Assembly: GCA_039638295.1 (NCBI GenBank) | Contig: JBDIWJ010000002.1 | Location: 12,415 to 76,414, forward strand | DNA length: 64,000 bases | From: Candidatus Phoenicimicrobium oleiphilum | GTDB taxonomy: Bacteria; Atribacterota; Phoenicimicrobiia; Phoenicimicrobiales; Phoenicimicrobiaceae | Reading direction: 5' to 3' | Shown: one piece after another, positions 15,100 through 63,545 of the stretch | Layout: each line of letters begins with the position of its first letter | Position numbering within the stretch: the stretch's first letter is position 1 | Program-made: the position numbers and the translations under genes | The notes under the pieces: generated by a model | Seen by the model: the letters and a program-made list of their open reading frames with translations, nothing else | Databases searched by the model: none | Told to the model about the DNA's origin: nothing

Positions 15100-15387
15100 C
15101 TCTTTAGCTAATAGTATATCCGGTGGAATACTTTTTATTTTTAAGAGGAGTCAAATTTATTGAGAAAATAAGTGTCTGTCCCTATTATTAATATATAATT
15201 ATATCACAGGGGTTTGACTACAGTATGGCAACAATTGGTGAAAGTTTTTTTAAAAAATTAAAAATTATTATTTTTTTGTTATTTTTCTATTATTATATGA
15301 TTATAAATTAAAAAACCTTAAAAATATTTAAAAACTATTATATGTTGTAAGGGCACAATGAATTGTGACACTATATTGGAAAAAAAT

Positions 15388-15625
15388 AGAGATTGCCGCG
15401 CCCTGATAAACCAGGGCTCGCAATGACAATATATGCAGACGGGATGCTTGTCCTATGTGATTATTAGAGATTGCCACGCCCTGATAAACCAGGGCTCGCA
15501 ATGACAATATATACAGGCGGAATGCTTGTCTTATATGATTGTTAGAGATTGCCGCGTCGCTACGCTCCTCGCAATGACGAAATAGCCATTGTGGGCACGA
15601 TGCATCGTAAACCTATATTATTAAA
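15388..15625. repeat. three tandem copies (78-bp period) of a palindromic repeat unit GATTGCC(G/A)CGCCCTGATAAACCAGGGCTCGCAATGAC, plus a partial GGGCACGATGCATCG palindrome
   Basis: Direct inspection shows unit starts at 15388, 15466 and 15544. The inter-unit sequences are nearly identical (so not CRISPR spacers). Confidence 0.8.
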
Positions 15626-15787
15626 GATTGTTGAAAAAATTATTTAAAATAGTATAATCATAAATGTGTCTTCTGAAAAAATTATATATATTTTTTATTT
15701 AACCGGTCACTTAATTTTCCATTAATTCACTTAAGGAGATAATCTTGGTATTTAGTTGTAGAAAGACATAAAGAAAGGAATGTAGTA

Positions 15788-18736
15788 ATGTCTAAACTAA
15801 TGAAGATTAAAAACTTGAAGAATTATGGTATCCCCTCTTATATTTTAGATATCTGGAAAAAACATTATTCCCCTTATTTGCTACCAGTACAGGAGGAGGC
15901 GGTAAAAAATTTTGGGGTATTGGATTCCCGCTTCCGCGAGAATGATAGACATAAAAACCTTTTAGTGATCGCTCCCACCTCTTCAGGAAAGACCTTCATC
16001 GGAGAAATGGCGGCAGTGTATCAGGTAATCCATCAGAAAAAGACCATCTTTATAGTCCCCTCAAGAGCTTTGGCCAGGGAAAAATACTGGCATTTTAAAA
16101 ACCTTTATGAGTGCTGCGGATTAGAAACAGTCCTCTTCAGTCGAGACCGCAAGGAAGATGATTACCGCCTAATTATAGGTGACTATAAATTAGCGGTAAT
16201 GTCCTACGAAAAATTTTATTATTTCCTCTTGAAATTCCCCGAATTTCTAACTAGTGTCTCCTTGATAGTAATGAATGAAGTACAGATGATTGATAACCCC
16301 AGATGGGGACCTATCCTGAAAGAGGTGATAGACCTGCTGCGGGGAAAGTATATGCCAAATCTCAGGATTATCGCTCTTTCTACCTTAATAGAAAATCAAA
16401 AAGCCCTCTTAAAATGGTTTCCCGCTCATCCCTTCATTTCTCATCAGCACCCGCAAGAGATACGCAAAGGGATAGTAAGAAAGGGAGTTTTTAAGTATAT
16501 CACCTCAAATAAGAAGAAGACTTTCAAAAAAGAAATATTCTTTAAACCAAATGCCGTCCGGGATAATTGTTTTAAAGATTATCTTCTGGAAACAGTAAGA
16601 TACTTTGTAAATAAAGATGAGCCGACTCTGGTCTTCTTTACTACCTCAGCTGAGACCCGAAAGTGGGCCAAATGGCTAGCTTCTCAATTAGAAACCCCTG
16701 CTGCCTCTTCTGCCCTAAGGGAACTTGCGGAAATGGAAGAGACCCTATCCCGGGAGGAATTGTCTGAGCTATTAAAAAAGGGGATTGCCTATTATAGTCA
16801 GGACCTTTCCTGGGAAGAGAAAAATTTAGTCGAGACTTACCTCAAAAAGGGAGAGATAAAATTGGTCTGTTCTACTATTACCCTATCAACCGGGGTTCAT
16901 ATGCCTTTTAAGAATGTCATAGTTCCTCAAGATATGTTGAATAATTTTGATGAAAATTGTCCCCATAATTATCGAAGAGGTCTTACCTTTTTCGATATAG
17001 AAAATATGAGTGGAAGTGCCAGGGTATCAGGATTTGGTCGAGTAATCTTTTTAGCCTATTCTCTCCTCACTGAGACCATCTTTCATAATCTCTATTTCAA
17101 TTATAATCATAATTATAATCATTATAGGACTTCAAAAACTCAAATAAAAAAGGTAGATGACCTGCTCACTTTCTTGTTGTACTTACTGTCTAAATATAAC
17201 TGCCAACCAGAGAAGATAAAAAATTATTTAAGGGAAGGAAAATTTATCTTTCCCGGAAATCAGAATAAATCTGCTGAAAAAGAAGACTGCTTCTGTGGTT
17301 ACTGGCAGTTTAGCTTTAACCAGGATAATTTAGAGGAAAAGATAGATAATTATCTGAATATTTTAAAAGAGAATAAATTGATTAGAGAGAACAGAGACGG
17401 TATCTTATCTCCTACTATCAATGGTACTCTAATTACTGCTAAGAATATCAAGGTAGAAACTTATCTTTTTTTAAAAAACTGGATGAAACATAGTAAGAAG
17501 GGGGAAATCAGTGATCTGGAGATACTCCTTCTTTTAGCCTTTAGTCCGAATGGTATGGAAATTTTCCTCCCCTGCTCTTCTTCTTGCCGAGATACTTATA
17601 AAAAAGAAAGATATAATCTCGACTGGACAGGGAATTACTGGAACAAACTCCTACAACTGGTCTTTGAACAGGATGAAGAGGATAAGAAGATTTATCAGGA
17701 CATACTTATATTGAAGAAAGAAAAGGAAGAGAAGTTGGAATGGAAGGATTATCTAGCTTTTAAGAAGACTCATTTACTGTATGACTGGATAAAGGAGAGT
17801 AAGGATATTAAAACCCTGGAACAGGAGTATGACCTCTATGGAGGGACTATTCGGAGATTGGTAGATAATTTTTCCTGGCTGACTGATAGTTTGGCAGAAA
17901 TAGCAGAAAGCGAAGGCTGGGGTAAGGATAGAAAAGATGATTTAAATAAGATAAAGAGGCTATCCAAAAGATTGATTGATGGTGTAGAAGAAGATGGTCT
18001 GAATTTATCTCAGTTATATATCCCTGGATTAAGCCGATATTATATAAGAAAATTGGTAGAAGCAGGGTATAGTGATAAGAAATGTTTTAAGGAGACCTCG
18101 GAGGAAAAATTAAGGAAGGTACTGCCCGAGAGATTGGTTAAAAGGATTCAAAAGATGATAAAGGAAGAAAAAGAGATTTTGAAGGGTAAAAGACAAAAGA
18201 TGATGGTTGAGGTTAGAAAATTAGAAGATAGGAAGAGGGAATTAGAAACTAATAAACTTACACCTGAAGCTGGGAAACTAGAACCTGAATTTTATTCTTT
18301 AAAATCTGAAACTGAAAATTATAAATCCAGGCTAATAGCTGAAGACCAAGATGTTGCAATTCGTCAACCCCTGCCCAAAAAGAAAAACTATGAGCCAAAG
18401 ATTATCCTGGAAATTGATCAGCACCGCCCGGATAGGATTATTTTTGAGGAGAAAGAAATAAAACTCACCCCCTTAGCCTTTTCTCTTATCTATTTATTAG
18501 CACAAAACCGAGGAAAGGTATTGTCTTATAATTATATCTCGGATACTCTGTGGAAGGAAGACAAAGATGCTACATACCATCGTCTCTGGTATCATCTATC
18601 TAATGCAAAAAATAATATTATAAAAAGAATCGGTAAAAATAAAAAAAATCAAAATAAAATCAAAAATCTCCTTAAAGTAATTAGAGGAAGAGGCTTGATA
18701 TTGAATATTGAGGAAAAGCAATTAAAAATTCTATAA
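15788..18736 (+). CDS. Hel308/Ski2-like SF2 helicase with degenerate motif II, fused to coiled-coil and C-terminal OmpR/PhoB-type winged-helix DNA-binding domain
   Basis: Walker A APTSSGKT and motif Ia PSRALAREK are present. Motif II reads NEVQ instead of DEVH and motif III reads LST instead of SAT. RecA2 motifs (TLSTGVHMP) are retained and there is a Hel308-type HhH near 730. The C-terminal residues about 860-982 (KLTPLAFSLIYLLAQNRGKVLSYNYISDTLW...) are a trans_reg_C-like winged helix. Confidence 0.8.
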   Translation: MSKLMKIKNLKNYGIPSYILDIWKKHYSPYLLPVQEEAVKNFGVLDSRFRENDRHKNLLVIAPTSSGKTFIGEMAAVYQVIHQKKTIFIVPSRALAREKYWHFKNLYECCGLETVLFSRDRKEDDYRLIIGDYKLAVMSYEKFYYFLLKFPEFLTSVSLIVMNEVQMIDNPRWGPILKEVIDLLRGKYMPNLRIIALSTLIENQKALLKWFPAHPFISHQHPQEIRKGIVRKGVFKYITSNKKKTFKKEIFFKPNAVRDNCFKDYLLETVRYFVNKDEPTLVFFTTSAETRKWAKWLASQLETPAASSALRELAEMEETLSREELSELLKKGIAYYSQDLSWEEKNLVETYLKKGEIKLVCSTITLSTGVHMPFKNVIVPQDMLNNFDENCPHNYRRGLTFFDIENMSGSARVSGFGRVIFLAYSLLTETIFHNLYFNYNHNYNHYRTSKTQIKKVDDLLTFLLYLLSKYNCQPEKIKNYLREGKFIFPGNQNKSAEKEDCFCGYWQFSFNQDNLEEKIDNYLNILKENKLIRENRDGILSPTINGTLITAKNIKVETYLFLKNWMKHSKKGEISDLEILLLLAFSPNGMEIFLPCSSSCRDTYKKERYNLDWTGNYWNKLLQLVFEQDEEDKKIYQDILILKKEKEEKLEWKDYLAFKKTHLLYDWIKESKDIKTLEQEYDLYGGTIRRLVDNFSWLTDSLAEIAESEGWGKDRKDDLNKIKRLSKRLIDGVEEDGLNLSQLYIPGLSRYYIRKLVEAGYSDKKCFKETSEEKLRKVLPERLVKRIQKMIKEEKEILKGKRQKMMVEVRKLEDRKRELETNKLTPEAGKLEPEFYSLKSETENYKSRLIAEDQDVAIRQPLPKKKNYEPKIILEIDQHRPDRIIFEEKEIKLTPLAFSLIYLLAQNRGKVLSYNYISDTLWKEDKDATYHRLWYHLSNAKNNIIKRIGKNKKNQNKIKNLLKVIRGRGLILNIEEKQLKIL

Positions 18737-19084: not shown

Positions 19085-19440
19085 GGTTAGCCAAAATAGT
19101 CGTTAGTCGTTAGTAGGGCAGGCTCACCTGTCTAGGTAACTGTAGGGCTACGATGTATCTGCCCACATAATTGCTCAATGTCATTGCGAGCGACTATAGG
19201 GAGCGTGGCAATTTCAAATGTAGGGGTTCGATTCATCGAACCCGTTTCGGGGCAGATAAATTAGACCCCTACTTTAAATGTCATTGCGAGCCCTGATTTA
19301 TCAGGGCGTGGCAATCTCATAAGTGTAGGGGCACGATGCATCGTGCCCAGGAAAAACAAATGACCATAAAACAGGGAGGGCACAATTCATTGTGCCCCTA
19401 CAATAATCTCATCTCAAGCTAACCAAAACTTCTAACAGAA
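19085..19440. repeat. cluster of concatenated palindromic repeat units (all four core types)
   Basis: Contains GTCATTGCGAGCGACTATAGGGAGCGTGGCAAT, GTAGGGGTTCGATTCATCGAACCC, GTCATTGCGAGCCCTGATTTATCAGGGCGTGGCAATCTC and GTAGGGGCACGATGCATCGTGCCC...GGGCACAATTCATTGTGCCCCTACAA. Confidence 0.8.
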
Positions 19441-19451
19441 AGGGAAGATAT

Positions 19452-20432
19452 ATGGAAAAAGAAAGACCAAATATTAAAACTAAATTATCTGAAGAAGGTT
19501 ATGTTATTATACCAGCTTATTTTTTAAATAATTGGACCGAAGTATTAGGAACCGGGCCAAGTATGCTGTATATTCAATTACTTAATTACTGTTATAAGGG
19601 AAAGGATATAGCCTGGCCTACTTTGACTACCTTAAGTAAGAAGATGCAACTTACTCCCAAGACTATAACCAGATACCAGAAGGTATTAACCAAATATGGC
19701 TTGATTAAAAAGATAGTCAAGAGAAAGACTTCTTTAGGAAGTTGTAGGAGAAATATTTACCAAGTTACTCCCTTAGATAAGGTAAAAAATTCCCCCCTTA
19801 TGAGTAATTTTTTCCCCTATATAGAGGAAAAAATTACCCCTAATATAGGGAAAAATTTACCCCTAAAGCATAACAATATAAACAATACCAATACAACAAC
19901 AACAAAAGCTGCTGTTGCTGATTTTAAAAAAAGAAAAGGAGAAGAAAAGATGAAAACCCTAAGAGAACAACTACAGGATTTAGATTTTAAAGAAAGCTTT
20001 ATCGAGAAATTACTGAAAGATTTTGACCTTAAGAAGATTGAGGAGAAATTAGATCTGTTATTGGTAAGGAGGAATATCCAGAACCCTACCGGCTGGCTCT
20101 ATGCTGCCTTAAAGAATGATTATCAGGACCCCCAATCCTCTCTGTCCTTCCCGCCATCCCCTTTGTCATTCCCGCGAAAGCGGGAATCCATTAAATCTCC
20201 CCACCAGGAGTCTATGAAGCAAGGTAGGGGCACGATGCATCGTGCCCAGGAAAAACAAATAACCATAAAACAGGGAGGGCACAATTCATTGTGCCCCTAC
20301 AAAATCATAAGTAATGGCAATCTCAGAGAAAATCCTCCCGAACCAGCCTCCCGCCAGAAAGCCCTAAAGGCTATAAGACTCATCCGAAAGAATCTCTCTT
20401 CCCTCTCCCCGGGAGGGAGAGGACCAGGCTGA
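19452..20432 (+). CDS. HTH_36-type helix-turn-helix protein (phage/plasmid replication-organizer-like); C-terminal about 90 codons read through repeat elements
   Basis: N-terminus YVIIPAYFLNNWTEVLGTGPSMLYIQLLNYCYKGKDIAWPTLTTLSKKMQLTPKTITRYQKVLTKYGLIKK matches the HTH_36 pattern. After about residue 235 the frame runs into the repeat cluster at 20140-20430 without a stop. Confidence 0.55.
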   Translation: MEKERPNIKTKLSEEGYVIIPAYFLNNWTEVLGTGPSMLYIQLLNYCYKGKDIAWPTLTTLSKKMQLTPKTITRYQKVLTKYGLIKKIVKRKTSLGSCRRNIYQVTPLDKVKNSPLMSNFFPYIEEKITPNIGKNLPLKHNNINNTNTTTTKAAVADFKKRKGEEKMKTLREQLQDLDFKESFIEKLLKDFDLKKIEEKLDLLLVRRNIQNPTGWLYAALKNDYQDPQSSLSFPPSPLSFPRKRESIKSPHQESMKQGRGTMHRAQEKQITIKQGGHNSLCPYKIISNGNLRENPPEPASRQKALKAIRLIRKNLSSLSPGGRGPG

Positions 20433-20625
20433 GGATAGAATATATGAGTTTGATTCATCGAACCCGGTAATCGTAGGACAGGCGTCTCGCCTGTTTAGGC
20501 AAATGTAGGGGTACGATGTATCGTGCCCCCATAACAGCAATAGTGTCATTGCGAGCCCTGATTTATCAGGGCGTGGCAATCTCAAATGTAGGGGCTTTAT
20601 TTATCAAGCCCCCCAGAAAGGAGAA
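20140..20625. repeat. about 500-bp array of palindromic repeat units ending in an AGAAAGGAGAAGATTA ribosome-binding sequence
   Basis: GTCATTCCCGCGAAAGCGGGAATC, GTAGGGGCACGATGCATCGTGCCC...GGGCACAATTCATTGTGCCCCTACAA, CCTCTCCCCGGGAGGGAGAGG, GTAGGACAGGCGTCTCGCCTGT and GTCATTGCGAGCCCTGATTTATCAGGGCGTGGCAATCTC, followed by the GAAAGGAG RBS. Confidence 0.8.
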
Positions 20626-20631
20626 GATTAG

Positions 20632-20955
20632 ATGTCTGAACTAAAAGAACTAATTTTACAGGCCAAACAGAAAGACGTAAAGGCAATGGAGGAATTATTT
20701 CTAAAATTTAGACCCTTACTAAAATCCCAAGCCAAAAGGTATGCCAGAGCAGGATTAGAATATGAGGAGGTCTTCCAACAGGCCTCCTTACTCTTTATCC
20801 TGGCAGTCTATGACTACCAGGAAAAGGAAAGTATTCCCTTTGCCGGCTATGTTAAAAAGAGAATCAATTGGGGGCTGTGGATGTACTATCGGAAATATCT
20901 TAAACAAAGAATAGAGATCTCCTCTGGCCTAAAACCAGAAGAACTGAACCAGTAG
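20632..20955 (+). CDS. sigma-70 region 2-only protein (RsoA/co-sigma-like half of a split sigma factor)
   Basis: FLKFRPLLKSQAKRYARAGLEYEEVFQQASLLFILAVYDYQEKESIPFAGYVKKRINWGLWMYYRKY resembles sigma-70 region 2.1-2.4 (group 4/5 sigma). The stop codon TAG is supplied by the first bases of the inserted repeat. Confidence 0.65.
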   Translation: MSELKELILQAKQKDVKAMEELFLKFRPLLKSQAKRYARAGLEYEEVFQQASLLFILAVYDYQEKESIPFAGYVKKRINWGLWMYYRKYLKQRIEISSGLKPEELNQ

Positions 20956-21095
20956 GACAAGCATCTTGCCTGTCCAGGCAAATGTAGGGGCACGATGTAT
21001 CGTGCCCCCATAATGGCAATAATGTCATTGCGAGCGACTATAGGGAGCGTGGCAATCTCAACCGTAGGGACCTGTTTCATCAAACCCATAGAAAG
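20953..21095. repeat. palindromic repeat element inserted between the sigma region-2 and region-4 ORFs, carrying the AGAAAGGAGAAGATTA RBS at its 3' end
   Basis: GTAGGACAAGCATCTTGCCTGTCC, GTAGGGGCACGATGTATCGTGCCCCC, GTCATTGCGAGCGACTATAGGGAGCGTGGCAATCTC, then AGAAAGGAGAAGATTA. The same 16-mer precedes the ORF at 20632. Confidence 0.8.
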
Positions 21096-21105
21096 GAGAA
21101 GATTA

Positions 21106-22154: not shown

Positions 22155-22189
22155 CTCAGGGGCTACCACCCCTTGGCGGTTAGCTGGTT

Positions 22190-22345
22190 AGCTAGTTTAC
22201 CAGTTAAGTTCCTGGGGGAGGTAACTCCCTCAGGAACAGATATGTAGGGGTCTGATTCATCAGACCCGAACAATAATGGGTCGGATAAATCCGCCCCCCT
22301 ACCCTAAAAGTCATTGCGAGCGACTGAAAGGAGCGTGGCAATCTC
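22190..22345. repeat. palindromic repeat units (GTAGGGGTCTGATTCATCAGACCC, GGGTCGGATAAATCCGCCCCCCTACC, GTCATTGCGAGCGACTGAAAGGAGCGTGGCAATCTC)
   Basis: Direct inspection. Confidence 0.75.
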
Positions 22346-22774: not shown

Positions 22775-22900
22775 ATTGTCGGTTGGATAGGCGTCTCGCC
22801 TGTCTACAATGTCATTGCGAGCCCTGTTTTATCAGGGTGGTACAATCTCTACTGTAGGGAATCGATTCATCTAACCTGTCTTTTTGAGTCGGATAAATCC
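22775..22900. repeat. palindromic repeat units (GGATAGGCGTCTCGCCTGTCTACA, GTCATTGCGAGCCCTGTTTTATCAGGGTGGTACAATCTC, GAGTCGGATAAATCCGTCCCCTACA)
   Basis: Direct inspection. Confidence 0.75.
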
Positions 22901-22975
22901 GTCCCCTACATAATTAGACAATTGGTAGATTGGAGAATTGGTAAATTAACTAACGACTGAAAGGAGTTAGTTCTT

Positions 22976-23384: not shown

Positions 23385-23590
23385 ATAAGAGACGTAGGGG
23401 CACGATGTATCGTGCCCAGGATAAACAAATGACGATAAAGCAGAGAGGGCACAATTCATTGTGCCCCTACAAAATCATAATAAACAATAATGTCATTGCG
23501 AGCGACTATAGGGAGCGTGGCAATCTCATAATTTATTAGATTGCTTCGTCGTTACACTCCTCGCATTGACATTTTGAGATTGGTATATTG
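23385..23590. repeat. palindromic repeat units including an inverted pair of GTCATTGCGAGC...GCGTGGCAATCTC units
   Basis: GTAGGGGCACGATGTATCGTGCCC...GGGCACAATTCATTGTGCCCCTACAA then GTCATTGCGAGCGACTATAGGGAGCGTGGCAATCTC and a diverged reverse copy GATTGCTTCGTCGTTACACTCCTCGCATTGACATT. Confidence 0.75.
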
Positions 23591-23993: not shown

Positions 23994-25253
23994 TCATTCT
24001 GGAAGAGATTCTGGTATTTTCGATAATGGTACATCTATGTATGTTATTTCGCCTGCTGTTACTACAATTTCATATTCCTCAGAGTCAAGATAACCTTCTG
24101 CTGACACATTGAGTGTATATGTTCCAACTGGAAGCTGGTCGAAAGAAAATAGACCATCTTCATCAGTTATTATGGAGCTTTCGAAAGTATATATATTACT
24201 GTATAGACTAACAGTTACATTTGCTTCGTTAATTGGTAAACCACTTTCTAAATCTAACACGCTCCCTGATATTGCCCCAGTTTCTTCAAATAATAGTATT
24301 ACATTAACTTCTGTATCCTTATCTGCTGCCACTTCAATGCTTTCTGAATACTCATTAAAGCCATCAGCATATACATTTAAAATATAGTTGCCTTCTGGAA
24401 CATTATCTAAACTGAATGTTCCTTCTGAGCCTGGTTCTTCCGAAGTTGAAGTAGTATTATTAAAGATGTATTCTCCACTAGAAAGAATTACGCTCGCACC
24501 ACCTATTCCTATAAACCCCAAATCTCCTCCATCATAAGACACAGTTCCAGAAACTGAACCTGAACTCTCGGGAAGCTCTTCTTCTGAATAAGTTTCAACT
24601 ACCATACTAATAACCGGTTTTAATTTATATTTTCCATTACCTGTTTTTATTACAGATTTTTTAGCATCAAAATCTATAGTTAACTTAGTAATCATACCTG
24701 CAATAATTTCAAAAGGATGATTTAATTTTATTCCCGTTTGATAAACACTGGGGATTTCAAGAGGTTCTGTTGATGTTGGCTTTTCTGATCCTTCTGATCC
24801 TTCTGATCCTTCTATTACTATCCAAGCATCTTCTTCCTCACCAACCTTTAAATAAAGTCTGAGTTGAGTATATTTATTCGGTTCAAGTTCTAATGATGCT
24901 AATAGTATAGAAACATCCTCTAATTTTATAAGGTCAACCAACAGACCTTCATCCCATTCCTTCAATATTATCCAAGACCCTTCTCCTTCTTCTCCTTCTT
25001 CTTCCCCTTCTTCGCCATCAACAGCTATATGCCCTTCTATTTTAGAAATTTTTATATTTATTTCTGAATAATCTCCCGGTGCATCAGTAAGATAAATTTT
25101 TAGTGTTCCCTTTCCTGCTGTCACTCCATCCGTTTGAGTTGGAGAAGTTGAATCATTTTCAGTCCCCGGAGTCACCAAATCACTTGCACATCCTGAAAGA
25201 AAAATAATAGCCAGCACTAAAAATAATGTTAAACCAAAATACTTTTTCATCAT
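23994..25253 (-). CDS. secreted lipoprotein, DUF4382-like N-domain plus two carboxypeptidase-regulatory-like (CarboxypepD_reg) domains
   Basis: Lipobox LSGCASD and acidic GEEGEEEGEEGEG linker. Two repeats of the G(S/T)VxD...G...NV pattern with DGxF..D.LP.GxY.LNV.A.GY. Confidence 0.7.
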   Translation of the reverse strand: MMKKYFGLTLFLVLAIIFLSGCASDLVTPGTENDSTSPTQTDGVTAGKGTLKIYLTDAPGDYSEINIKISKIEGHIAVDGEEGEEEGEEGEGSWIILKEWDEGLLVDLIKLEDVSILLASLELEPNKYTQLRLYLKVGEEEDAWIVIEGSEGSEGSEKPTSTEPLEIPSVYQTGIKLNHPFEIIAGMITKLTIDFDAKKSVIKTGNGKYKLKPVISMVVETYSEEELPESSGSVSGTVSYDGGDLGFIGIGGASVILSSGEYIFNNTTSTSEEPGSEGTFSLDNVPEGNYILNVYADGFNEYSESIEVAADKDTEVNVILLFEETGAISGSVLDLESGLPINEANVTVSLYSNIYTFESSIITDEDGLFSFDQLPVGTYTLNVSAEGYLDSEEYEIVVTAGEITYIDVPLSKIPESLPE

Positions 25254-25929
25254 TCTTTCCTCCTATTTTATTTAATATTTTTTAAAAAATAAAAAAAGTC
25301 GGCAGTCTGGCGGTCATAGCAATAAATTGCCTTAGACCCATAACTTTGCGTCCTACCTTTTCAGATAGTTTGCCTTTATCAACTTTTTAAAGCTAATTAT
25401 TCAATTTTTATACTATTTAATAATATACTACACTTATTTTAAAAATCCTTCTTTTTTTAAAATAATTTTGAAATTTTTATTGATATAGGAGTAAGGTCTT
25501 CACATTTGACATTTCTTAATTTTTTAATAGAAACAAAGATGTCCTCTGTCTTATAAAATTAAATGAAATGAAAAGATAGAACTTATCCCTATCATTTTTT
25601 ATAAGCCCTTATACTTATATCGCAAATATATAAGTTCTTAGCCTTATAAAATAGGTTAATATTAATTAATGTATGCAGAATAAAAGAAGCCTACTATAAA
25701 CGAGATTTTTTATTGAACTTTTATAAGTGTGGTAATATATCTAAATTATAGTCGCATTTACTGAACGCAGTGCGAACCTATTTTGAGACATCAATAACAA
25801 ATATTTAATCTTTCCGATTCGGCTTTCGTCTGCCTTCCTGCCTGCACGGCAGGAAGGCATCCTTGCGTCCTCAACCTCGTAAAAAATCTTTTTTTATTTA
25901 AGAGCGTGCCGAACATTTTTTTAATTTTT

Positions 25930-28915: not shown

Positions 28916-29956
28916 TCATCTTTGCTTGAACTCAGTCAAATTTGCTAAGAATTTTTCAATTTGTTTTTCTTCTCTAAAAAATCCTCCACCGAATTCCCCC
29001 GCCCATTCCTCATACTCTGCTTTTTTCTCGTATGAGGGCAGGGCATCCATTGCGACCCTCTTTTCGATGTGAAAATAATCTGCGAACCTATCAATATAGA
29101 CCGTAAATCGCACACCTTTTTCTGAATCGCTCTCTTTAGGCAAAATACTAAAAATTGTATTTCTCGATTTTCTTTCACCCATGATACCGATGAATGCAAT
29201 ACTGCTCATCGTTGTGACGCTTTGATCGAAACATTTTGACAATTCTACAACAATTCTTTTGTAACTATCGCCAATGCCGTTCTTTTCAGCTATCTCTTGT
29301 AGCTCCTCGTAAGACAATGGCGGCTTTCTTTTCGAAGTGGATTTTGTCTGTATTCTGTATTCGGCTTCGCTCGGCTCAATCAAAAATACTTTTGCTAAAA
29401 ATTCTCTTCCTTCTTCATTCTGAAAGTACTGAAAAGTAATTGCGTTTATCCCAACGCCGTAAGAGTCCGAAAGATATTTGATTATCCTCTCGGAACTGCT
29501 ATCTATTTCGGAAGCTACAACCAGCATTTTGTGATGTTCGTTCAAAATCTCCGGGATTTCTGTGCCAAACTTTCTCTTGAAGGCTTCTTCAAGAGGACCT
29601 TTATCACCAAGATATCTATTGGCAATTTCAGTTATTTTCTCGTTTGACAAATCTTTTGTCCAAGATGCGTAATCTAATACTTGTGCAGTTATTTCTCTTG
29701 GAGTCTTATCACGTTTCAATTCAACGATGAGAATATCACCATTGTATTCAATGCACAAAAGGTCAATGATTCCCCCAAATCCTGTTTCTACCTGCCTGCC
29801 AATCACTAATAAGTCATTGGAAATTATTGAAATATCTTTTTCCAGCCAATCCTCTAATCGCTCTTCTAGATCAAGCTTTGATTTGCTGATTTCCTTTAAT
29901 GTGTCCCTATCAATGATTTCCCATACTTTTACATCTTGTGGCATTGTATCCTCCAA
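28916..29956 (-). CDS. NucS/DUF91-like PD-(D/E)xK nuclease-domain protein
   Basis: LEERLEDWLEKDISIISNDLLVIGRQVETGFGGIIDLLCIEYNGDILIVELKRDKTPREITAQVLDYASW is the conserved GxIDLL...ELKR...Q core shared by NucS/DUF91 and Shedu DUF4263 nucleases. Confidence 0.55.
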   Translation of the reverse strand: MEDTMPQDVKVWEIIDRDTLKEISKSKLDLEERLEDWLEKDISIISNDLLVIGRQVETGFGGIIDLLCIEYNGDILIVELKRDKTPREITAQVLDYASWTKDLSNEKITEIANRYLGDKGPLEEAFKRKFGTEIPEILNEHHKMLVVASEIDSSSERIIKYLSDSYGVGINAITFQYFQNEEGREFLAKVFLIEPSEAEYRIQTKSTSKRKPPLSYEELQEIAEKNGIGDSYKRIVVELSKCFDQSVTTMSSIAFIGIMGERKSRNTIFSILPKESDSEKGVRFTVYIDRFADYFHIEKRVAMDALPSYEKKAEYEEWAGEFGGGFFREEKQIEKFLANLTEFKQR

Positions 29957-30132: not shown

Positions 30133-30675
30133 CTATATCCCGCTGGCTAACGTAAGTATAAATTTCTGTTGTTTTTGAACTCTTATGGCCAAGTAACTCT
30201 TGAATATACCGTAAATCTGTACCACCTTCCAAAAGATGGGTAGCAAAACTATGGCGCAATGAAGCATATAATCTCTGATATGTTTTTCATCAAGCTCTTT
30301 TGGGTCTTTTGCAAAGTAGTTAATGTATCGTTCAATATGGTGTAGATATGCTTTTTGGGTTTTCTGGCTATATCCCTTTAATTTGAGCTCCTTCTTTACT
30401 ACCTCTGTAATCCTGGCTTGGTTTGGTACTTGTTTATCAGATTTTTGTTCAAAAGGAACTTGCAAGGTAGAGTTTACATAGATATTTTCATTCTTAAAAA
30501 CCGACAAAATCTTTTTTAAAATATCTTCCGAATGGGGAAAACTCCAATACTTTTTATCCGGGTGCCATCTATGGCCCTCAATGGATTTAACCATAGCAAC
30601 AAATTTAGGGTCATACGAAAAAGTAACGATAATTTTGCCTTCCTTTATATCTTTACTGATTCTTACGCTTGCCAT
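30133..30675 (-). pseudogene. int: tyrosine recombinase/integrase with large internal deletion and frameshift
   Basis: Intact N-terminal arm/core-binding region (RWHPDKKYWSFP...QKAYLHHIERYINYF). After DYMLH a +1 frame reads [39 protein letters not shown], which is box II with catalytic H/R/Y. The whole central catalytic domain is missing. Confidence 0.75.
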
Positions 30676-31243: not shown

Positions 31244-31320
31244 TGGTCGGGGCGAGAGGACTTGAACCTCCGACCCCCTGAACCCCATTCAGGTGCGCTT
31301 CCAAACTGCGCCACGCCCCG
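31244..31320 (-). tRNA. tRNA-Pro (anticodon GGG), CCA encoded
   Basis: Manual fold of the reverse complement: acceptor CGGGGCG/CGCCCCG, D arm GCGC-AGUUUGGAA-GCGC, anticodon arm CCUGA-AUGGGGU-UCAGG, variable loop GGGUC, T arm GGAGG-UUCAAGU-CCUCU, discriminator A, CCA. Confidence 0.85.
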
Positions 31321-31430: not shown

Positions 31431-31560
31431 CTTTTGTAGGGGGCGGATTTATCCACCCCGGAATAAGCGGGTTCGATGAATCAAACCCCCTACAGTTGAG
31501 ATTACCACGCCCTGATAAATCAGGAGAGTGGGCGCGATGTATCGTGTATATATTAATGAC
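31431..31560. repeat. palindromic repeat units downstream of dprA
   Basis: GGCGGATTTATCCACCCC, GGGTTCGATGAATCAAACCCCCTACAGTTGAGATTACCACGCCCTGATAAATCAGG and GGGCGCGATGTATCGTG. Confidence 0.75.
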
Positions 31561-31583: not shown

Positions 31584-32726
31584 CTATAGTTTGATGAATT
31601 TTTTCCCTTCGATTTCTTTTATTAAATCTTTTAGTTCAAGGTTTAGCAATATTTCGCTAACTTTACTGGCAGATAGTTTACTTGCCTCAATAATTTCGTC
31701 TATTTGAACAGGTTCATTATTAATTATTTTATAGACAGTTTTTTCTTCTTCTGATAGAGAATATTGATTTATATTTATCTTCTCACCTTCTGGTTTTTGA
31801 TTCAATATAATAGAAAGTTCTTCTAAAATATCCTGAAAATTATTCACTAATTTTGCTCCTTGTTTTATCAGGTTATGGGTACCTTTTGATAAAGCAGAGG
31901 TTATATTCCCGGGAACCGCAAATACTTCCCTGCCCTGTTCAAGGGCAAAATCAGCAGTTATTAAAGCGCCACTCTTCTCTGCTGCCTCTACCACTACAGT
32001 CCCCCGGCTTAATCCACTGATAATACGATTCCTGCGGGGGAAATTCTGCCTTTCTGGTAGAGTAGAAAAAGAGAACTCAGTTATTACTGCACCTGATTCC
32101 TCAATCTCTCTTGCCAGTCTTCTATTCTCAGGTGGGTATATATGGTCAATTCCGCAACCCAATACCGCTATTGTTCTGCCCTTTACGGACAATGCTCCTC
32201 GGTGAGCAGCTGTATCAATTCCTCGAGCCATTCCACTAATTATAGTTAACCCAACTGAGGCTAAATCTTTACTTAAATTTTCAGCGACCATTTTTCCATA
32301 ATAGGTAGCTTTTCTTGAACCTACAATAGAAATAGAATTTTTATCATCCTTTATGATGTTTCCTTTGAAGTATAATAAAGGGGGCGGATCATGGATTTCC
32401 TTTAGATTTTCTGGATATAAGTCGTCTTCTATAGTCAAAACTTTGGTCTTGTATCTGTCTAATAAATCTAATTCTCTATTTAAGTTAATATTACTTTTCT
32501 TTTCGAAGATTCTTGAGGATATTTTAGGGCTTAAATTAAGAACTTTTGATATTTCTTCTGATTTTGCCTTCCAGGCATTTTCAGCAGTACCAAAATGTTT
32601 TATTAATTGGTAAAATCTTTTTGGGCCTATATCGGACATTTTGTTCCAGGCCAGCCAATATTTTAATTGTTGTTCATTCACCTGATATTCCTCCTCGATT
32701 ATTGGCGGGTTCGATAAATCGAACAC
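31584..32726 (-). CDS. dprA: DNA processing protein DprA/Smf
   Basis: Rossmann-like DprA core (SIVGSRKATYYG...GMARGIDTAAHRGAL) and C-terminal wHTH. Confidence 0.9.
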   Translation of the reverse strand: MFDLSNPPIIEEEYQVNEQQLKYWLAWNKMSDIGPKRFYQLIKHFGTAENAWKAKSEEISKVLNLSPKISSRIFEKKSNINLNRELDLLDRYKTKVLTIEDDLYPENLKEIHDPPPLLYFKGNIIKDDKNSISIVGSRKATYYGKMVAENLSKDLASVGLTIISGMARGIDTAAHRGALSVKGRTIAVLGCGIDHIYPPENRRLAREIEESGAVITEFSFSTLPERQNFPRRNRIISGLSRGTVVVEAAEKSGALITADFALEQGREVFAVPGNITSALSKGTHNLIKQGAKLVNNFQDILEELSIILNQKPEGEKININQYSLSEEEKTVYKIINNEPVQIDEIIEASKLSASKVSEILLNLELKDLIKEIEGKKFIKL

Positions 32727-32795
32727 CTACAGTTGAGATTGCTACACCTTGATAAATCAGTAAGGAGGGCACGATGCATCGTGCCCCTACAATTG
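32701..32795. repeat. palindromic repeat units upstream of dprA
   Basis: GGGTTCGATAAATCGAACACCTACAGTTGAGATTGCTACACCTTGATAAATCAG and GGGCACGATGCATCGTGCCCCTACAA. Confidence 0.75.
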
Positions 32796-32847
32796 AATCT
32801 TATTTCCTTTACGCAATACGCAATATTCTATACGCAATACAAGAATA

Positions 32848-45206: not shown

Positions 45207-45244
45207 GAAAATAAATTTTTTCTTGAAATCCCTTTGGCTTACAA

Positions 45245-45375
45245 TAGCTGCTAGTTATTACTGTATTGTAGGGGCACAATGAATTGTGCCCTTATTGTTT
45301 ATTACCTACTGTCTCTTGTGGGCACGATGCATCGTGCCCCTACATTCCTGATAATCTTGTGTGCTCTTTGGGTTA
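45245..45375. repeat. palindromic repeat element (GTAGGGGCACAATGAATTGTGCCC ... GTGGGCACGATGCATCGTGCCCCTACA ... GGGTTACAATCATTGATCA)
   Basis: A near-identical copy lies at 46320-46425 on the other side of rluD. Confidence 0.8.
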
Positions 45376-45378
45376 CAA

Positions 45379-46305: not shown

Positions 46306-46319
46306 CTATCAAAGACATC

Positions 46320-46425
46320 CTTTACATTGTAGGGGCACAATGAATTGTGCCCTTATTGTTTATTACCTACTGTCTCTTGTGGGCACGATGCATCGTGCCC
46401 CTACCTATTATAAATTACCTATTAC
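46320..46425. repeat. palindromic repeat element, near-identical to 45245-45375
   Basis: GTAGGGGCACAATGAATTGTGCCCTTATTGTTTATTACCTACTGTCTCTTGTGGGCACGATGCATCGTGCCCCTAC matches the other copy over more than 70 nt. Confidence 0.85.
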
Positions 46426-46431
46426 CTGTTA

Positions 46432-50574: not shown

Positions 50575-50700
50575 TTTAATTATACTACGGTTATTTCCCA
50601 AAAAGCTGTGATGGGCACGATGTATCGTGCCCCCGTTTTCACGGGGGCAGGCTCCTACATTACTATTTTGTGTACTTTCTGGGTTACAATCATAATATAT
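50575..50700. repeat. repeat element inserted between the T-box terminator and the ileS start
   Basis: GGTTATTTCCCAAAAAGCTGTGATGGGCACGATGTATCGTGCCCCCGTTTTCACGGGGGCAGG...GGGTTACAATCAT. Confidence 0.75.
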
Positions 50701-51000
50701 AATAAAACCCCTTGTCGCTCAAAAGGACAAGAGGTTTAAATTTCTTGTGGTACCACCTAATATTTTTCATTATCTCACGATAATGATCTCGAGGAGTAAA
50801 TATATTTAAATTTTTTAAATAAATTTTACTCCAAATTTTAACGATATTCACCGTTCTAATTTACTCTTTGATTAATTTCAATTAGAAATATGGAGAGGAT
50901 TTTCGATAGAAAAAAATTACAGGCTTGCACTATCCCTGCTCGCTATTAAATTATATCTACCTACTCTTTCTCTTAGAGAATAAACCAATATTTTTTATTT
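50700..51000 (-). promoter_or_regulatory. T-box leader (tRNA-Ile responsive) for ileS
   Basis: Minus strand has AUAUUAGGUGGUACCACAAG (T-box consensus AGGGUGGUACCGCG-like). It is followed by the terminator CCUCUUGUCC-UUUUGAGCG-ACAAGGGG plus a U-run. Confidence 0.6.
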
Positions 51001-52479: not shown

Positions 52480-52794
52480 AAAAAATATTCCTTCCGTTTA
52501 TTATTATTAAATTGATTAGCTGGTTTTCAAGTTAGCTAGTTAGCCAGTTTAATACTAATAAGTCATTAACCATTAATATGGTTGACAGATGAGCAAACTC
52601 CCCCTGAACCCCTTCTACTAACTTTTTTATTCCCTTTCGGTTTTATATAAATCTTTTCCTGACAATCTTGTTAAAATCCATTATTTTTATTTTAAACTTG
52701 TGCCCGTGAAACATGTACTCGTGAAAACGAGTAACGGGTATAAGAATTTATTTTGAAGCATCGGATTTTCTTTGAAATTCCAATTCACCACTAT

Positions 52795-52900
52795 ATCAAT
52801 TGTAGGGGCACGATGTATCGTGCCCATAGAAAATAATAGATAACAATTTACCGAGGGCACAATTCATTGTGCCCCTACATTCTGATTATAATCAAAAACT
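52795..52900. repeat. palindromic repeat element (GTAGGGGCACGATGTATCGTGCCC ... GGGCACAATTCATTGTGCCCCTACA)
   Basis: Direct inspection. Confidence 0.8.
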
Positions 52901-58057: not shown

Positions 58058-58075
58058 CTTTTACTCCTTACCCTT

Positions 58076-59439: not shown

Positions 59440-59700
59440 GGGCAACTTTCTATTGAAATCACCAATCTTATATTAAATATGGTTATTTCCCAAAAAGCTA
59501 AAAATACTTTCAATGGGTTATGTATATATTACGCCACAGCTAATTTTATAGCAAATTATGACTTTTTGGTTATAATTATGTTGTAGGGGCACAATGAATT
59601 GTGCCCTCGCTCTAATTGTTTAATTTCTCCTGTGGGCACGATACATCGTGCCCCTACCTTACAATTTTATCTACTTTTTGGGTTTCAATCAAATATATAA
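59440..59700. repeat. composite about 250-bp repeat element, copy A
   Basis: GGTTATTTCCCAAAAAGCTAAAAATACTTT...TTTTGGTTATAATTATGTTGTAGGGGCACAATGAATTGTGCCC...GTGGGCACGATACATCGTGCCCCTAC...TTTTTGGGTTTCAATCA. Tandem with copy B. Confidence 0.85.
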
Positions 59701-59744
59701 TTCTATATAAAATTAAAAAATCCTTCTTTTTGCTTATATTATAA

Positions 59745-59950
59745 TTGGTTATTTCCCAAAAAGCCAAAAATATTTTTAACGCATTATATTGATAGTATAT
59801 TTTAGATAATTTTATAATAAATTACAACTTTTTTGGTTATAATTAGGTAGTAGGGGCACAATGAATTGTGCCCTTGCCATATTGTTGCCTAATTTCTCCT
59901 GTGGGCACGATGCATCGTGCCCCTACTACATTACTATTTTGTGTGCTTTT
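59745..59950. repeat. composite about 200-bp repeat element, copy B (tandem to copy A)
   Basis: GGTTATTTCCCAAAAAGCCAAAAATATTTT...TTTTTGGTTATAATTAGGTAGTAGGGGCACAATGAATTGTGCCC...GTGGGCACGATGCATCGTGCCCCTAC. Confidence 0.85.
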
Positions 59951-61103
59951 AAACTACCGAAGGTTCAAGAATTAGTTCTCCCCTTTCAAATCTTCCAACA
60001 TCTAATTTATCTTCTATGGATAGAGAAGTCCTACCGGTTAATATTAATTCTGCAATTAATTTGCTGGTTACCGGGGCTAACATAAATCCATGTCCGCTAA
60101 ACCCTATTGCCATATAAAAACCGCTCATCTTGGGATGTTCCCCCAAGATTGGTTGGGCATCAGGACTCACATTATATAGACCAGCCCATTGTCTTACCAT
60201 ACTCACCTCTTTTAATAAAGGTACTACCGCAGTAATTTTTTGAGCCATCTCTCGAGCGAACTGCCAGCTTGAGCCCATATCATACCCTTTAGGTTCATTC
60301 GGGTCACCAAAGCCCATTATTATACTCCCATGAGGAGTCTGTTGACAATAGAAATTGTGAGAAAAAGACATTAGCATTGGCCGAAATAAAGGATCGACTG
60401 GTTCAGTAATTAAAATTTGATGTCGTTGAGAATAGACAGGTAAATCCAACCCTGCCATTTTTCCAATCACTCCCGAATATCCTCCGGCTGCATTTACTAC
60501 AATGGAAGTAAATATCTTCCCTTTATCTGTATTAACTGCCACTATTCTGTTGTTTTTTGTTTCAATCTCTTTTACTTCAGTAAAAGTATATATCTTTACT
60601 CCCAACCTTTTAGCTGCTTCCGCATAGGCAAAGTTTGTTTTAAAGGGATCTGCGTGACCATCGGTAGGACAAAAAGTTGCAGCTAATACACCTTCTGTAT
60701 TTAAAGGTGGAACAATCTCTTTGGCCTCTTTAACCGTGATAAATCTGGAATCAATACCTAAAGATTGTTGCAGAGCCACATTTTTCTTAAATTGATTAAC
60801 TTCTCTTTCGGTATAAGCCAGGATTAGATAGCCACCTTGATTAAGTTCGATCTCATAATCCAGTTCTTCACTTAAATTCTCAAAAATCTTAATACTCTCT
60901 CGGGCCAGGATACAGTTCATCTCAGTACCAAACTGCTGTCTGATTCCTGCTCCACATCTACCGGTTGAACCACTGGCTAAAGTATTCTTTTCTAATAATA
61001 CTATATCTTCAGCCCCTAATTTAGCTAAGTTATAGGCGATGCTGCAACCGATTACTCCCCCACCAATTATAACTATATCAGCATTTTTGATCATCATTAT
61101 CAC
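59949..61103 (-). CDS. FAD-dependent oxidoreductase (sarcosine oxidase beta / proline dehydrogenase beta-like)
   Basis: N-terminal FAD fold IVIIGGGVIGCSIAYNLA. DAO family. Confidence 0.8.
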   Translation of the reverse strand: MIMMIKNADIVIIGGGVIGCSIAYNLAKLGAEDIVLLEKNTLASGSTGRCGAGIRQQFGTEMNCILARESIKIFENLSEELDYEIELNQGGYLILAYTEREVNQFKKNVALQQSLGIDSRFITVKEAKEIVPPLNTEGVLAATFCPTDGHADPFKTNFAYAEAAKRLGVKIYTFTEVKEIETKNNRIVAVNTDKGKIFTSIVVNAAGGYSGVIGKMAGLDLPVYSQRHQILITEPVDPLFRPMLMSFSHNFYCQQTPHGSIIMGFGDPNEPKGYDMGSSWQFAREMAQKITAVVPLLKEVSMVRQWAGLYNVSPDAQPILGEHPKMSGFYMAIGFSGHGFMLAPVTSKLIAELILTGRTSLSIEDKLDVGRFERGELILEPSVV

Positions 61104-62949: not shown

Positions 62950-63251
62950 TTGAAATCACCTTTCCCTTTTTGAGTTTCAATCTTCATCCCTTCTTCCAAT
63001 TTAGTTACGCAGGTCCTTACATTAGGGATGCCATTTACTTTCATCAGACAGGATGAACATTTGCCTATGGCACAAAAGAATCCTCGAGGTCGATGATACT
63101 TAATACTCCTGCTTAATACCTTTACTCCTGCGGCAACTATGGCAGAAGCAATTGGTTCTCCTTCGTAGCCCTCCATCTCTTTTCCGTCTAAATAAAATCT
63201 TATTTTTTTACCTGGATAAAATTCTAAGATAGGATGTTCTTTTATCCGCAT
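62946..63251 (-). CDS. (2Fe-2S)-binding protein (Fer2_4)
   Basis: YHRPRGFFCAIGKCSSCLMKVNGIPNVRTC motif. Confidence 0.75.
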   Translation of the reverse strand: MRIKEHPILEFYPGKKIRFYLDGKEMEGYEGEPIASAIVAAGVKVLSRSIKYHRPRGFFCAIGKCSSCLMKVNGIPNVRTCVTKLEEGMKIETQKGKGDFN

Positions 63252-63284
63252 ACTATCCCTCCTAATTTTTTATAACATTTCATA

Positions 63285-63545
63285 ATATCGTAAAATATTA
63301 TATATGGTGTATTTCTAACAAATTTATAACAAATTTTGATTTTTTGCTTATAATTATATTGTGGGGGCACAATGAATTGTACCCTTCTTATTTTAATGCC
63401 CAGTCTCTCCTGTGGGCACGATACATCGTGCCCTACATTTATGATACATCGTGCCCTACATTTACAATGTCTCTGGCCCCGACATTTACAATGTCTCTTG
63501 CCTTTACATTACGGTTTTGTTTATTTTTTTGATTACAACCATTTT
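63285..63545. repeat. composite repeat element with internally triplicated half-palindromes
   Basis: TTTTTGCTTATAATTATATTGTGGGGGCACAATGAATTGTACCC...GTGGGCACGATACATCGTGCCCTACATTTATGATACATCGTGCCCTACATTTACAATGTCTCTGGCCCCGACATTTACAATGTCTCTTGCC...GATTACAACCATT. Confidence 0.8.

Follow-up and report, generated by a model that had tools for sequence, protein, structure and literature searches.

Abundant palindromic repeats in a contig of an uncultured Atribacterota lineage as probable REPs and REPINs of a RAYT found in its relatives

What are the palindromes that recur between the genes of a 64-kb stretch of Candidatus Phoenicimicrobium oleiphilum DNA, and which enzyme might have spread them? The stretch (64,000 nucleotides, positions 12,415 to 76,414 of contig JBDIWJ010000002.1, assembly GCA_039638295.1), here called the window, has a GC content of about 33% and carries its genes mostly on the minus strand, the exception being the block at 15.3-24 kb, which lies on the plus strand and has about 40% GC. 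A preliminary description, made from the letters alone, had seen in it one modular family of palindromes built from four cores. Instead, the repeats fall into at least three kinds that are nested and differ in their mobilisation signatures, namely GTAG-tagged repetitive extragenic palindromes (REPs) and their inverted doublets (REPINs), TGTC/CGTC-tagged hairpins, and a miniature inverted-repeat transposable element (MITE) of about 215 bp. With a probability of roughly 85% we regard the cores as GTAG-tagged REPs, many of them arranged as REPINs, that are the non-autonomous partners of a single-copy REP-associated tyrosine transposase (RAYT) of the Y1/HUH type, subclass 2.4.

GTAG-tagged hairpins and their doublets

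The abundance of the repeats is beyond doubt. A scan for a GTAG head followed by a stem-loop returned 44 hairpins in the window as compared to 4-15 in Markov shuffles, and about 33 of them are GC-rich units beginning with GTAGG (about 8 expected by chance; the exceptions have a GTGG head at 63361 and a GTTG head at 22782), which amounts to about 0.5 units per kb spread over many separate intergenic regions. Core 1 (GGGCACRATGMATYGTGCCC) was found at about 27 sites where shuffles gave 0, and cores 3 and 4, with 4 matches and about 10 sites, respectively, are also far more frequent than chance. The second core, which comprises the GTCATTGCGAG…GCAATCTC hairpins treated below, is real but had been given a wrong spacing: written with 15 free nucleotides it has no match in the window because the true gap is 11-14 nt, and letting the gap vary gives 8 exact copies (0 expected) or, allowing mismatches, 11 full and 2 truncated ones. 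Nor is it spread along the window, being nearly confined to 15.3-23.6 kb, with every full copy within 15.4-23.6 kb. A scan of the window against Rfam gave no family matching any repeat, the only matches at gathering thresholds being a c-di-GMP-I riboswitch and a tRNA, and a literature search with the repeat strings returned chance primer matches only.

The common form of the GTAG hairpin is (T)GTAGGGG-NNNN-(G/A)AT-NN-AT(C/T)-NNNN-CCC, with the GTAG head at the 5' side, a stem of 9-10 bp and a loop of 2-4 nt. The middle of the stem varies (GCAC, GTTC, GTCT, GTCG, GGCG, GCTT) and the opposite side compensates. Among 15 distinct copies 94% of the cells are paired and both sides have changed in four of the nine pairs; none of 500 shuffles equalled this, and slid registers pair to 30-45%.

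Many of these REPs form doublets with the heads outside. Nine class-I doublets (REPINs) in the window consist of a G-type REP, a linker of 27-29 nt and an A-type REP, which read GATGCATC and AATGAATT on the top strand, the inverted REP ending in CTAC. In the minimum-energy fold the two REPs pair with each other into a single long hairpin (z -5 to -7 at -19 to -20 kcal/mol, for example z -6.9 at -19.9 kcal/mol), and single units likewise fold as hairpins. The modal linker of 29 nt recurs in 50 of 71 non-redundant metagenome copies. Five further doublets of the window have other stems and linkers of 5-10 nt. Many non-MITE REPINs of other contigs are preceded by a conserved left flank …CGTATTGCGTTAAAGAAACCAGGATTCAAGT, suggesting that the sequence that moves may extend beyond the doublet. 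The class-I REPINs of the window, together with a collapsed one, are the following.

19325-19401 (+): GTAGGGGCACGATGCATCGTGCCC, 29-nt linker, GGGCACAATTCATTGTGCCCCTAC; in the phage-like island; -19.1 kcal/mol, z -5.0
20224-20300 (+): in the repeat-derived 3' tail of open reading frame (ORF) 19452-20432, within a 102-bp block that the related island L242 lacks
23394-23470 (+): found by both the core and the hairpin scans
45268-45343 (-): between the convergent NFACT gene and rluD
46329-46404 (-): sole element of the lgt-rluD spacer 46306-46431
52802-52878 (+): the only one of these doublets running against local transcription
59583-59657 (-): inside MITE copy 1
59850-59926 (-): inside MITE copy 2
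63361-63436 (-): degenerate, GTGG head; 3' part re-copied in 23-24-bp tandem duplications to 63510
40897-40936 (+): collapsed REPIN, two REPs joined by internal deletion, between rpoZ and gmk

At 63420-63510 two overlapping tandem duplications of 23-24 bp (100% and 84% matches) re-copy the 3' half of the REP with adjacent sequence, which may be the footprint of slippage or of aberrant REP processing.

Dispersal, and a transposase in related genomes

As the doublets look like repeat-spacer-repeat units and tandem copies lie at 15387-15553 and 59480-59950, one could think of a local duplication, an assembly artefact confined to the contig or a degenerate CRISPR-like array (clustered regularly interspaced short palindromic repeats). 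This explanation is refuted. The window is 100% identical to contig DOTB01000031.1 (GCA_003513845.1) and to contigs of several JGI samples, one of them from an oil field, and has been assembled independently in several samples; its elements extend over 48 kb between unrelated genes and recur in more than a hundred further contigs; the repeats within a doublet are inverted and systematically different from each other and the doublets are dispersed, whereas a CRISPR array consists of direct repeats with unique spacers, and no cas genes are among the annotated ORFs of the window. Strain polymorphism among the window-identical contigs (L119-L124, 100%) was considered and rejected, the lone apparent indel being a scaffold gap of Ns. 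This gap (L122, 1721-1733) falls exactly between the two REPs of one REPIN, where the hairpins disturb short-read assembly.

Confinement of the repeats to the window, which would have refuted the preliminary description, is thus not the case. The A-type 24-mer GTAGGGGCACAATGAATTGTGCCC occurs in at least 119 metagenome stretches, with at least 70 distinct flanking contexts for the metagenome elements, and the GC content of 28-41% throughout the matches listed indicates that it is specific to low-GC lineages. The core 24-mer GTAGGGGCACRATNNATYGTGCCC was found in at least 118 stretches in a scan of one genome per species, as compared to about 0.3 expected by our own estimate from collection size and pattern degeneracy. 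The matches listed come from Acidobacteriota, Chloroflexota, Thermodesulfobacteriota, Cyanobacteria, Verrucomicrobiota, Bacteroidota, Omnitrophota, Atribacterota and others, and most of them are a single 'double-foot' palindrome, GTAGGGGCACGATNNATCGTGCCCCTAC.

Copies also differ between related loci. Over 79 bp, linker included, the REPIN that follows rluD (45265-45343) matches 46326-46404 without a difference (100%), and the relative L244 has just 10 bp at the former place. At 63.3 kb the REPIN is present in three loci (L172, L198, L205) and absent from L009, which keeps the right MITE arm only; this Atribacterota metagenome-assembled genome (MAG) is the closest named relative among the loci fetched, syntenic at 75-80% nucleotide identity. 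The phage-like island L242, 95% identical over 1.1 kb, is devoid of the 102-bp block that holds REPIN 20224-20300. Judged from such comparisons, copies appear to arise by duplication or mobility within the lineage.

A candidate enzyme emerged from the cross-phylum matches. At four of these loci the hairpin lies within an ORF of about 180 amino acids, straight after a PNH(M/V)H motif, and a profile built from three such ORFs led to two low-GC metagenome loci (L169, L228) in which a RAYT-like gene is flanked on both sides by the class-I REPIN of the window. The gene itself also contains the repeat in frame, one REP in L169 and a whole REPIN in L228 and L245, as do L006, L017, L075 and L087 from other phyla. 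The internal copies in L228 (1590-1690) and L245 (535-610) are head-in (tail-tail), the flanking REPINs head-out. The encoded proteins score 23.3-32.9 bits against PF01797 (Y1_Tnp, cut-off 23) and show the motifs PNHFH, IWQRNYYEH (WQRNYYEH) and YI(L/Q)ENP; some homologues are annotated RayT by JGI. As these motifs, the 'double-foot' REPs and the in-gene REPs match the published hallmarks (PMC6006769), we assign the predicted enzyme to TnpA_Y1 subclass 2.4, which corresponds to RAYT group 4 of Bertels.

In four relatives, L244 (GCA_030588595.1), L245 (GCA_044240385.1), L247 and L248, this gene lies between lgt and rluD in the order lgt, REPIN, RAYT, REPIN, rluD, the two REPINs pointing the same way; the flank of L169 on the rluD side belongs to this site as well. 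Compared to the window, rluD and lgt of these genomes show 70-76% amino-acid identity. In the window the lgt-rluD spacer (46306-46431) contains one REPIN in the orientation of the relatives and nothing else. As had been noted before, no RAYT is encoded in the 64 kb, and the spacer corresponds to the REPtron (RAYT-plus-REP) site of the relatives, minus the RAYT. We favour loss of the RAYT by recombination between its two bracketing REPINs, which would leave one behind. A second group of RAYTs (69-75% identical, paralogue or orthologue), seen in L249, L250 and L320-L327, lies between an HD/GAF-HD signalling protein and ligA-gatCAB in several populations. This second conserved site agrees with RAYTs being inherited vertically at fixed places, and the host may carry a RAYT there, upstream of ligA.

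With the GTAG tag, the compensatory stems of 9-10 bp, the head-out doublets and a cognate RAYT flanked in the same manner in relatives, the initial comparison to REPs and bacterial interspersed mosaic elements (BIMEs) is upheld for the hairpin cores. By analogy to TnpA-REP from E. coli and to IS608, the RAYT would bind the folded REP hairpin on single-stranded DNA, read the 5' GTAG, cleave and rejoin, and REP or REPIN units could thereby be copied to new, mostly intergenic sites with no target duplication.

Several points weigh against this assignment. The covariation set was partly picked by eye from hairpin-forming copies, making the test somewhat lenient, and the evidence for mobility is wholly comparative, at 70-95% identity. 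The RAYTs of the relatives reach 64.3-72.6 bits on the NCBIfam model REP_Tyr_transpos, under its equivalog cut-off of 80 bits, and the enzyme is therefore related to, not an equivalog of, the one from E. coli. None of the best 120 RAYT homologues is tied to the host genome: a single cluster among them combines NCBI and JGI source labels, as the host population should, and it stems from another organism. Moreover, six RAYT clusters that were traced in search of a host gene all came from other assemblies or samples, so the elements of the host could be orphans. The lgt-rluD site could also be ancestrally free of a RAYT and never have been occupied, and in L236 it has none either. Finally, the direction from G-type to A-type REP follows transcription in 25 of 34 REPINs between co-directional genes (25 vs 9, p = 0.009) and in 8 of 9 in the window, a bias that fits selection at the RNA level as well as the replication-strand targeting that HUH enzymes would be expected to show; most genes are co-oriented with GC skew and the bias can thus not separate the two.

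The MITE, the phage-like island and the TGTC-tagged hairpins

The longer composites had been described with outer arms, and arm GGTTATTTCCCAAAAAGC with its inverted partner CTTTTTGGGTTACAATC was indeed found at them. Aligning 25 copies taken from other contigs reveals a non-coding element of about 215 bp with sharp ends and with flanks that are unrelated between copies. Its ends, TGGTTATTTCCCAAAAAG… and …CTTTTTGGGTTACAATCA, are imperfect terminal inverted repeats (TIRs) of 19 bp, and exact AT-rich direct repeats of 5-6 bp, that is target-site duplications (TSDs) such as TAATAT, TATTAT, TTTTAT, TAGTAT, CAACAT and TAAAAT, abut both ends in 10 of 13 full copies. The composite is a classical MITE with a complete REPIN inside; the earlier comparison to MITEs holds for it and not for the remaining repeats. 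In the window it is represented as follows.

59480-59691 (+): full copy 1, about 212 bp, TIRs TGGTTATTTCCCAAAAAG (left) and CTTTTTGGGTTTCAATCA (right), internal REPIN, AATAT on both sides; in the predicted fold the arms pair (-29.8 kcal/mol, z -4.1)
59746-59950 (+): copy 2, in tandem, right end truncated at the stop of gene 59949-61103
50588-50692 (+): short derivative (left TIR, one REP, right TIR) between T-box terminator and ileS start
40792-40993 (+): degenerate copy with the collapsed REPIN, between rpoZ and gmk
45230-45381 (+): 3' portion (internal arm-like motif, REPIN, right TIR)
63340-63541 (+): 3' portion (internal motif, REPIN, degenerate right TIR); L009 keeps the right arm alone
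36684-36701 (-): solo left TIR

The TIRs and TSDs of the composite, and the fact that about half of the A-type REPINs in metagenome loci bear the MITE-type linker or arms, might suggest that all repeats are one MITE family moved by a DDE transposase, the GTAG hairpins being mere internal MITE structure and the RAYT having no role. We consider this very unlikely: 33 of 70 REPINs are without MITE arm or MITE-type linker, TIR-less REPs exist as singles, class-II doublets and head-to-tail mosaics, the RAYT genes are bracketed by arm-less REPINs and contain REPs internally too, and the REP is found alone in many phyla. The MITE would have to be moved by a different transposase making staggered cuts, probably of the DDE type; no autonomous insertion sequence with its TIRs is present among the approximately 330 loci examined, public collections not having been scanned for one. 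The MITE-type linker is found in 21 of 24 arm-bearing REPINs as compared to 3 of 36 copies with other linkers, indicating that the REPIN cargo propagates with the MITE. It is conceivable, though in our view unlikely, that REPINs have in this way gained a second, RAYT-independent route of spread, captured in a TIR/TSD element and moved by another (probably DDE) transposase. If so, REP populations could persist and multiply in genomes deprived of their RAYT, as that of the window may be with only a REPIN at its REPtron site. Two unrelated transposition chemistries would then cross-mobilise, and the view that the loss of a RAYT leads to decay of its REPIN population would have an exception.

The block at 15.3-24 kb is a phage-like island encoding a DEAD-box helicase fused to a Trans_reg_C domain, a DnaD/HTH_36-like protein, a sigma factor, DUF2922, a holin-like protein and an M15 peptidase. 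Almost all gaps between its cistrons are occupied by coding-strand GTAG REPs and TGTC hairpins in head-to-tail arrays, and from 19.1 to 23.5 kb the coding strand carries every GTAG head and TGTC hairpin, always between cistrons. The TGTC unit has the form GTCATTGCGAG(C)-variable inner hairpin-(GCGT)GGCAATCTC. The TGTC hairpins of the island and its CGTC-type REP are listed here.

15387-15578 (-): array of three TGTC hairpins (15389-15427, 15467-15505, 15545-15578), the first two a 78-bp tandem repeat
19180-19318 (+): two TGTC hairpins (19180-19215, 19280-19318) with a class-II doublet between them
20164-20190 (+): canonical CGTC-type REP (TGTC, ATTCCCGC, GAAA, GCGGGAAT, CCA)
20545-20583 (+): TGTC hairpin GTCATTGCGAGC-CCTGATTTATCAGG-GCGTGGCAATCTC, -10.4 kcal/mol, z -4.6
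21024-21059 (+): TGTC hairpin, GACTATAGGGA inner variant
22310-22345 (+): TGTC hairpin, GACTGAAAGGA inner variant
22811-22849 (+): TGTC hairpin with degenerate 3' foot
23492-23570: two mutually inverted TGTC hairpins, 23492-23527 (+) and 23538-23570 (-)

The full published definition of CGTC-tagged REPs (CGTC-1, PMC3733652) fits only 20164-20190. The GTCATTGCGAG…GCAATCTC unit has the tag and the AT-first stem, its loop being a nested hairpin of 11-25 nt and its tail CTC or CCC, and judging from these features it is best treated as a putative variant working like a CGTC REP. TGTC hairpins were found in 56 IMG/VR stretches with 34-62% GC, where the foot is invariant and the inner hairpin hypervariable yet self-complementary; many of these viral contigs are related phages with structural genes in common, and the hairpin often lies 10-20 nt upstream of a ribosome-binding site (RBS). 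When we looked for an enzyme co-occurring with it in the viral contigs, the shared families were phage structural proteins and included no nuclease or transposase. To our knowledge no enzyme or transposase has been described for such a TGTC-tagged hairpin, whose foot is conserved and whose inner hairpin is free, common as it is in viral contigs. In one IMG/VR contig (L295, 320-1891) a large phage ORF, of a family present in 15 viral loci, has the hairpin-encoded peptide …GIATSPRFIGAPRNDRK…, so that phage ORFs, too, can harbour the hairpin in frame, which recalls the RPEs of Rickettsia. Inside the helicase ORF 15788-18736 of the window there is a CGTC-like hairpin at 15923-15946 (-) (ATCATTCTCGCGGAAGCGGGAATC), either an in-gene REP or a chance match.

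The repeats had also been proposed to donate promoters and RBSs. Promoter-like sites, however, number 80 in the window and 79.7 in shuffles, and the suggested TATAAT donation is thus not supported. For RBSs there is one demonstrable case, a head-to-tail mosaic of about 155 bp duplicated together with AGAAAGGAGAAGATTA; the other GGAG motifs are ordinary RBSs beside repeats.

20952-21105 (+): mosaic of three GTAG REPs, one TGTC hairpin and AGAAAGGAGAAGATTA, 83% identical to 20473-20630

A phage-type sigma factor is split here, region 2 (20632-20955) and region 4 (to 21306) lying in one frame with a 153-bp mosaic between them, which has a single stop codon, the TAG of a GTAG head, and ends in GGAG followed by TTG at 21107. 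The split is likewise found in the related island L242.

The DnaD/HTH_36-like ORF 19452-20432 was considered as an in-frame REPIN insertion in a functional gene and rejected as such: its tail, past the conserved …NPTGWLYAALKNDY motif, derives from repeats, and in L242 the homologue already stops upstream. The ORF runs on through the CGTC REP, the REPIN and other palindromes, and its counterpart (L242, 176-898), devoid of a 71-bp and a 102-bp block, stops inside the CGTC REP (…VIPAKAGIH*). The N-terminal halves of the two are only about 70% identical while the remainder of the island is 95-100% identical, suggesting a recombinant mosaic.

The hairpins might also be maintained by a function for the host and not by transposition, be it as terminators, protectors of mRNA 3' ends, intercistronic processing or translation-coupling signals or BIME-like protein-binding sites. 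The compensatory stem changes, the orientation along transcription, the coding-strand arrangement in the island, the mosaic-borne RBS, the position of TGTC hairpins before RBSs in viral contigs and the T-rich tracts 3' of some A-type REPs all agree with this. Presence or absence at orthologous sites and identical copies elsewhere, however, require copying and not conservation only; most REPs have no T tract and terminator-like sites are not enriched (15 vs 11.7 ± 4.7 expected). A host function is moreover compatible with transposition, as exaptation after insertion is expected for REPs, and hairpins at 3' ends could serve as terminators or mRNA stabilisers. Maintenance by function is an improbable substitute for REPs moved by a RAYT, though it deserves more credit than a single MITE family.

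The remaining GTAG-tagged units of the window are class-II doublets, singles and clusters.

19220-19272 (+): class-II doublet, unlike stems (GTTCGAT.. / ..GGCAGAT), 5-nt linker
22244-22302 (+): class-II doublet, GTCTGAT.. / GTCGGAT.. stems, 10-nt linker
22854-22909 (+): class-II doublet, partly degenerate
31436-31493 (+): class-II doublet downstream of dprA, beside tRNA-Pro
43085-43133 (+): hybrid doublet, class-II REP and truncated class-I REP
20505-20529 (+): single GTAG REP in mosaic 20473-20630
20588-20612 (+): single GTAG REP (GCTTTAT..ATCAAGC stem), directly 5' of the RBS of ORF 20632
20984-21008 (+): single GTAG REP in mosaic 20952-21105, -11.4 kcal/mol, z -6.4
21064-21087 (+): degenerate single GTAG REP
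32707-32790 (-): cluster upstream of dprA, with class-II REP 32707-32730, truncated TGTC hairpin 32735-32760 and class-I REP 32767-32790
36571-36596 (-): single class-I REP between fmt and def
43243-43268 (-): single class-II REP just upstream of the NFACT gene
42920-42941 (+): headless class-I REP hairpin
15351-15370 (+) and 15593-15613: degenerate class-I REPs, the first at the left edge of the island
20473-20495 (+): GTAGGACAGGCGTCTCGCCTGT-type REP, -7.6 kcal/mol, z -5.0
19113-19136, 20952-20975, 22782-22807 (head on -) and 43059-43081: other GTAGGACAGGCGTCTCGCCTGT-type REPs

Heptamer-like short tandem repeats (TACGCAA ×4.4, TAGTCGT, TTAGCTGG) lie beside REPs at 32810-32840, 19100-19112, 22170-22200 and 52520-52560.

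The gene context given previously is correct: repeats flank dprA (31584-32726) and rluD on both sides and lie between gmk and rpoZ and upstream of ileS. The T-box before ileS (50720-50986, -) is a full-length model match with 66.8 bits and E = 3.5e-14 and is convincing although the Rfam gathering score of 93 is not reached. Further neighbours are a c-di-GMP-I riboswitch (25298-25384, -, 87 bits) upstream of a DUF4382/CarboxypepD_reg surface-type protein (23994-25253), a NucS_C-like protein (28916-29956) and tRNA-Pro(GGG) (31244-31320, -). The tRNA adjoins ORF 30133-30675, which has only the N-terminal SAM-like domain of a phage integrase, and the region may be a decayed integration site.

Abundant REPIN-RAYT systems are hereby extended to an uncultured, AT-rich subsurface lineage (Atribacterota-like), for which our literature search gave no paper joining Atribacter with REP, REPIN or RAYT. 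What we consider interesting locally is the high density, the RAYT-less REPtron site, the REPIN as MITE cargo and the mosaic-split gene. Syntenic genomes with and without a RAYT at lgt-rluD offer a comparison set for the fate of REPINs after RAYT loss. For practical work it matters that the hairpins break metagenome assemblies, as in L122, can split genes (compare the sigma factor of the window) and give rise to ORFs that are spurious or too long, recognisable by peptides like GRGTMHRAPT, VIPAKAGIH and LRATIGSVAIS, and masking is advisable in such MAGs.

Comparison with known systems

The BIMEs of E. coli are mosaics of Y and Z REPs with fixed linkers in which IHF, DNA gyrase or Pol I bind to defined linker motifs. 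The doublets of the window resemble them in having two inverted REP variants, constrained linkers and a position between co-directional or convergent genes, while the sequences are unrelated. With bacterial MITEs such as Nezha, RUP, Correia/NEMIS and ERIC the composite of about 215 bp shares its size, non-coding nature, 19-bp TIRs, AT-rich TSDs, intergenic location and long-hairpin fold, and it differs from them in its cargo, a complete REPIN of another mobilisation system.

CGTC-tagged REPs, known as dRS3 in Neisseria and RPE-4/6 in Rickettsia, have a CGTC or TGTC tag, an 8-9-bp AT-first stem, a 4-5-nt loop and a CCA tail, and no associated transposase was seen for them (PMC3733652). The unit 20164-20190 agrees with its TGTC tag, 8-bp AT-first stem, 4-nt loop and CCA tail. 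The GTCATTGCGAG unit agrees in the TGTC/CGTC tag, the AT-first stem and in that no associated transposase was seen, in contrast to its hypervariable second hairpin of 11-25 nt in place of the loop, its CTC/CCC tail and its frequency in viral contigs.

In REPIN-RAYT systems an inverted REP doublet forms a long hairpin and the RAYT is bracketed by its own REPINs (Bertels & Rainey 2011, PMC3116915). TnpA_Y1 subclass 2.4 is characterised by the motifs NH[IFV]H, WQ and YIxNNP, 'double-foot' REPs and in-gene REPs (Quentin et al. 2018, PMC6006769), the E. coli RAYT belonging to subclass 2.2 with bulged long REPs (PMC6006769), and group 4 RAYTs show a modest abundance of flanking 16-mers of about 14 per replicon (PMC5581495). 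The system described here has the long-hairpin doublets and 'double-foot' REPs in common with subclass 2.4 and group 4, and in the relatives also the bracketed RAYT, its motifs and in-frame REPs and its low copy number at conserved chromosomal sites. Unlike in group 4, the REPINs are abundant, the conserved site of the window is without RAYT and some REPINs lie within a TSD-forming MITE.

The GTAG-tagged REP superfamily, finally, is defined by a 5' GT[AG]G tag, a stem of 6-13 bp, a loop of mostly 2-4 nt and sub-families that arise by complementary changes, with head-head dimers 20-100 bp apart, clusters, occasional copies in ORFs and an association with RAYTs (Di Nocera, De Gregorio & Rocco 2013, PMC3733652). 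Tag, stem, loop, sub-families, dimers, clusters and in-ORF copies are all shared by the units of the window, and the RAYT association by those of its relatives. They differ in their host, an Atribacterota-like lineage with 33% GC from outside the phyla listed there, in their high density and in the head-to-tail mosaics with TGTC hairpins, an arrangement which was called rare in that study.

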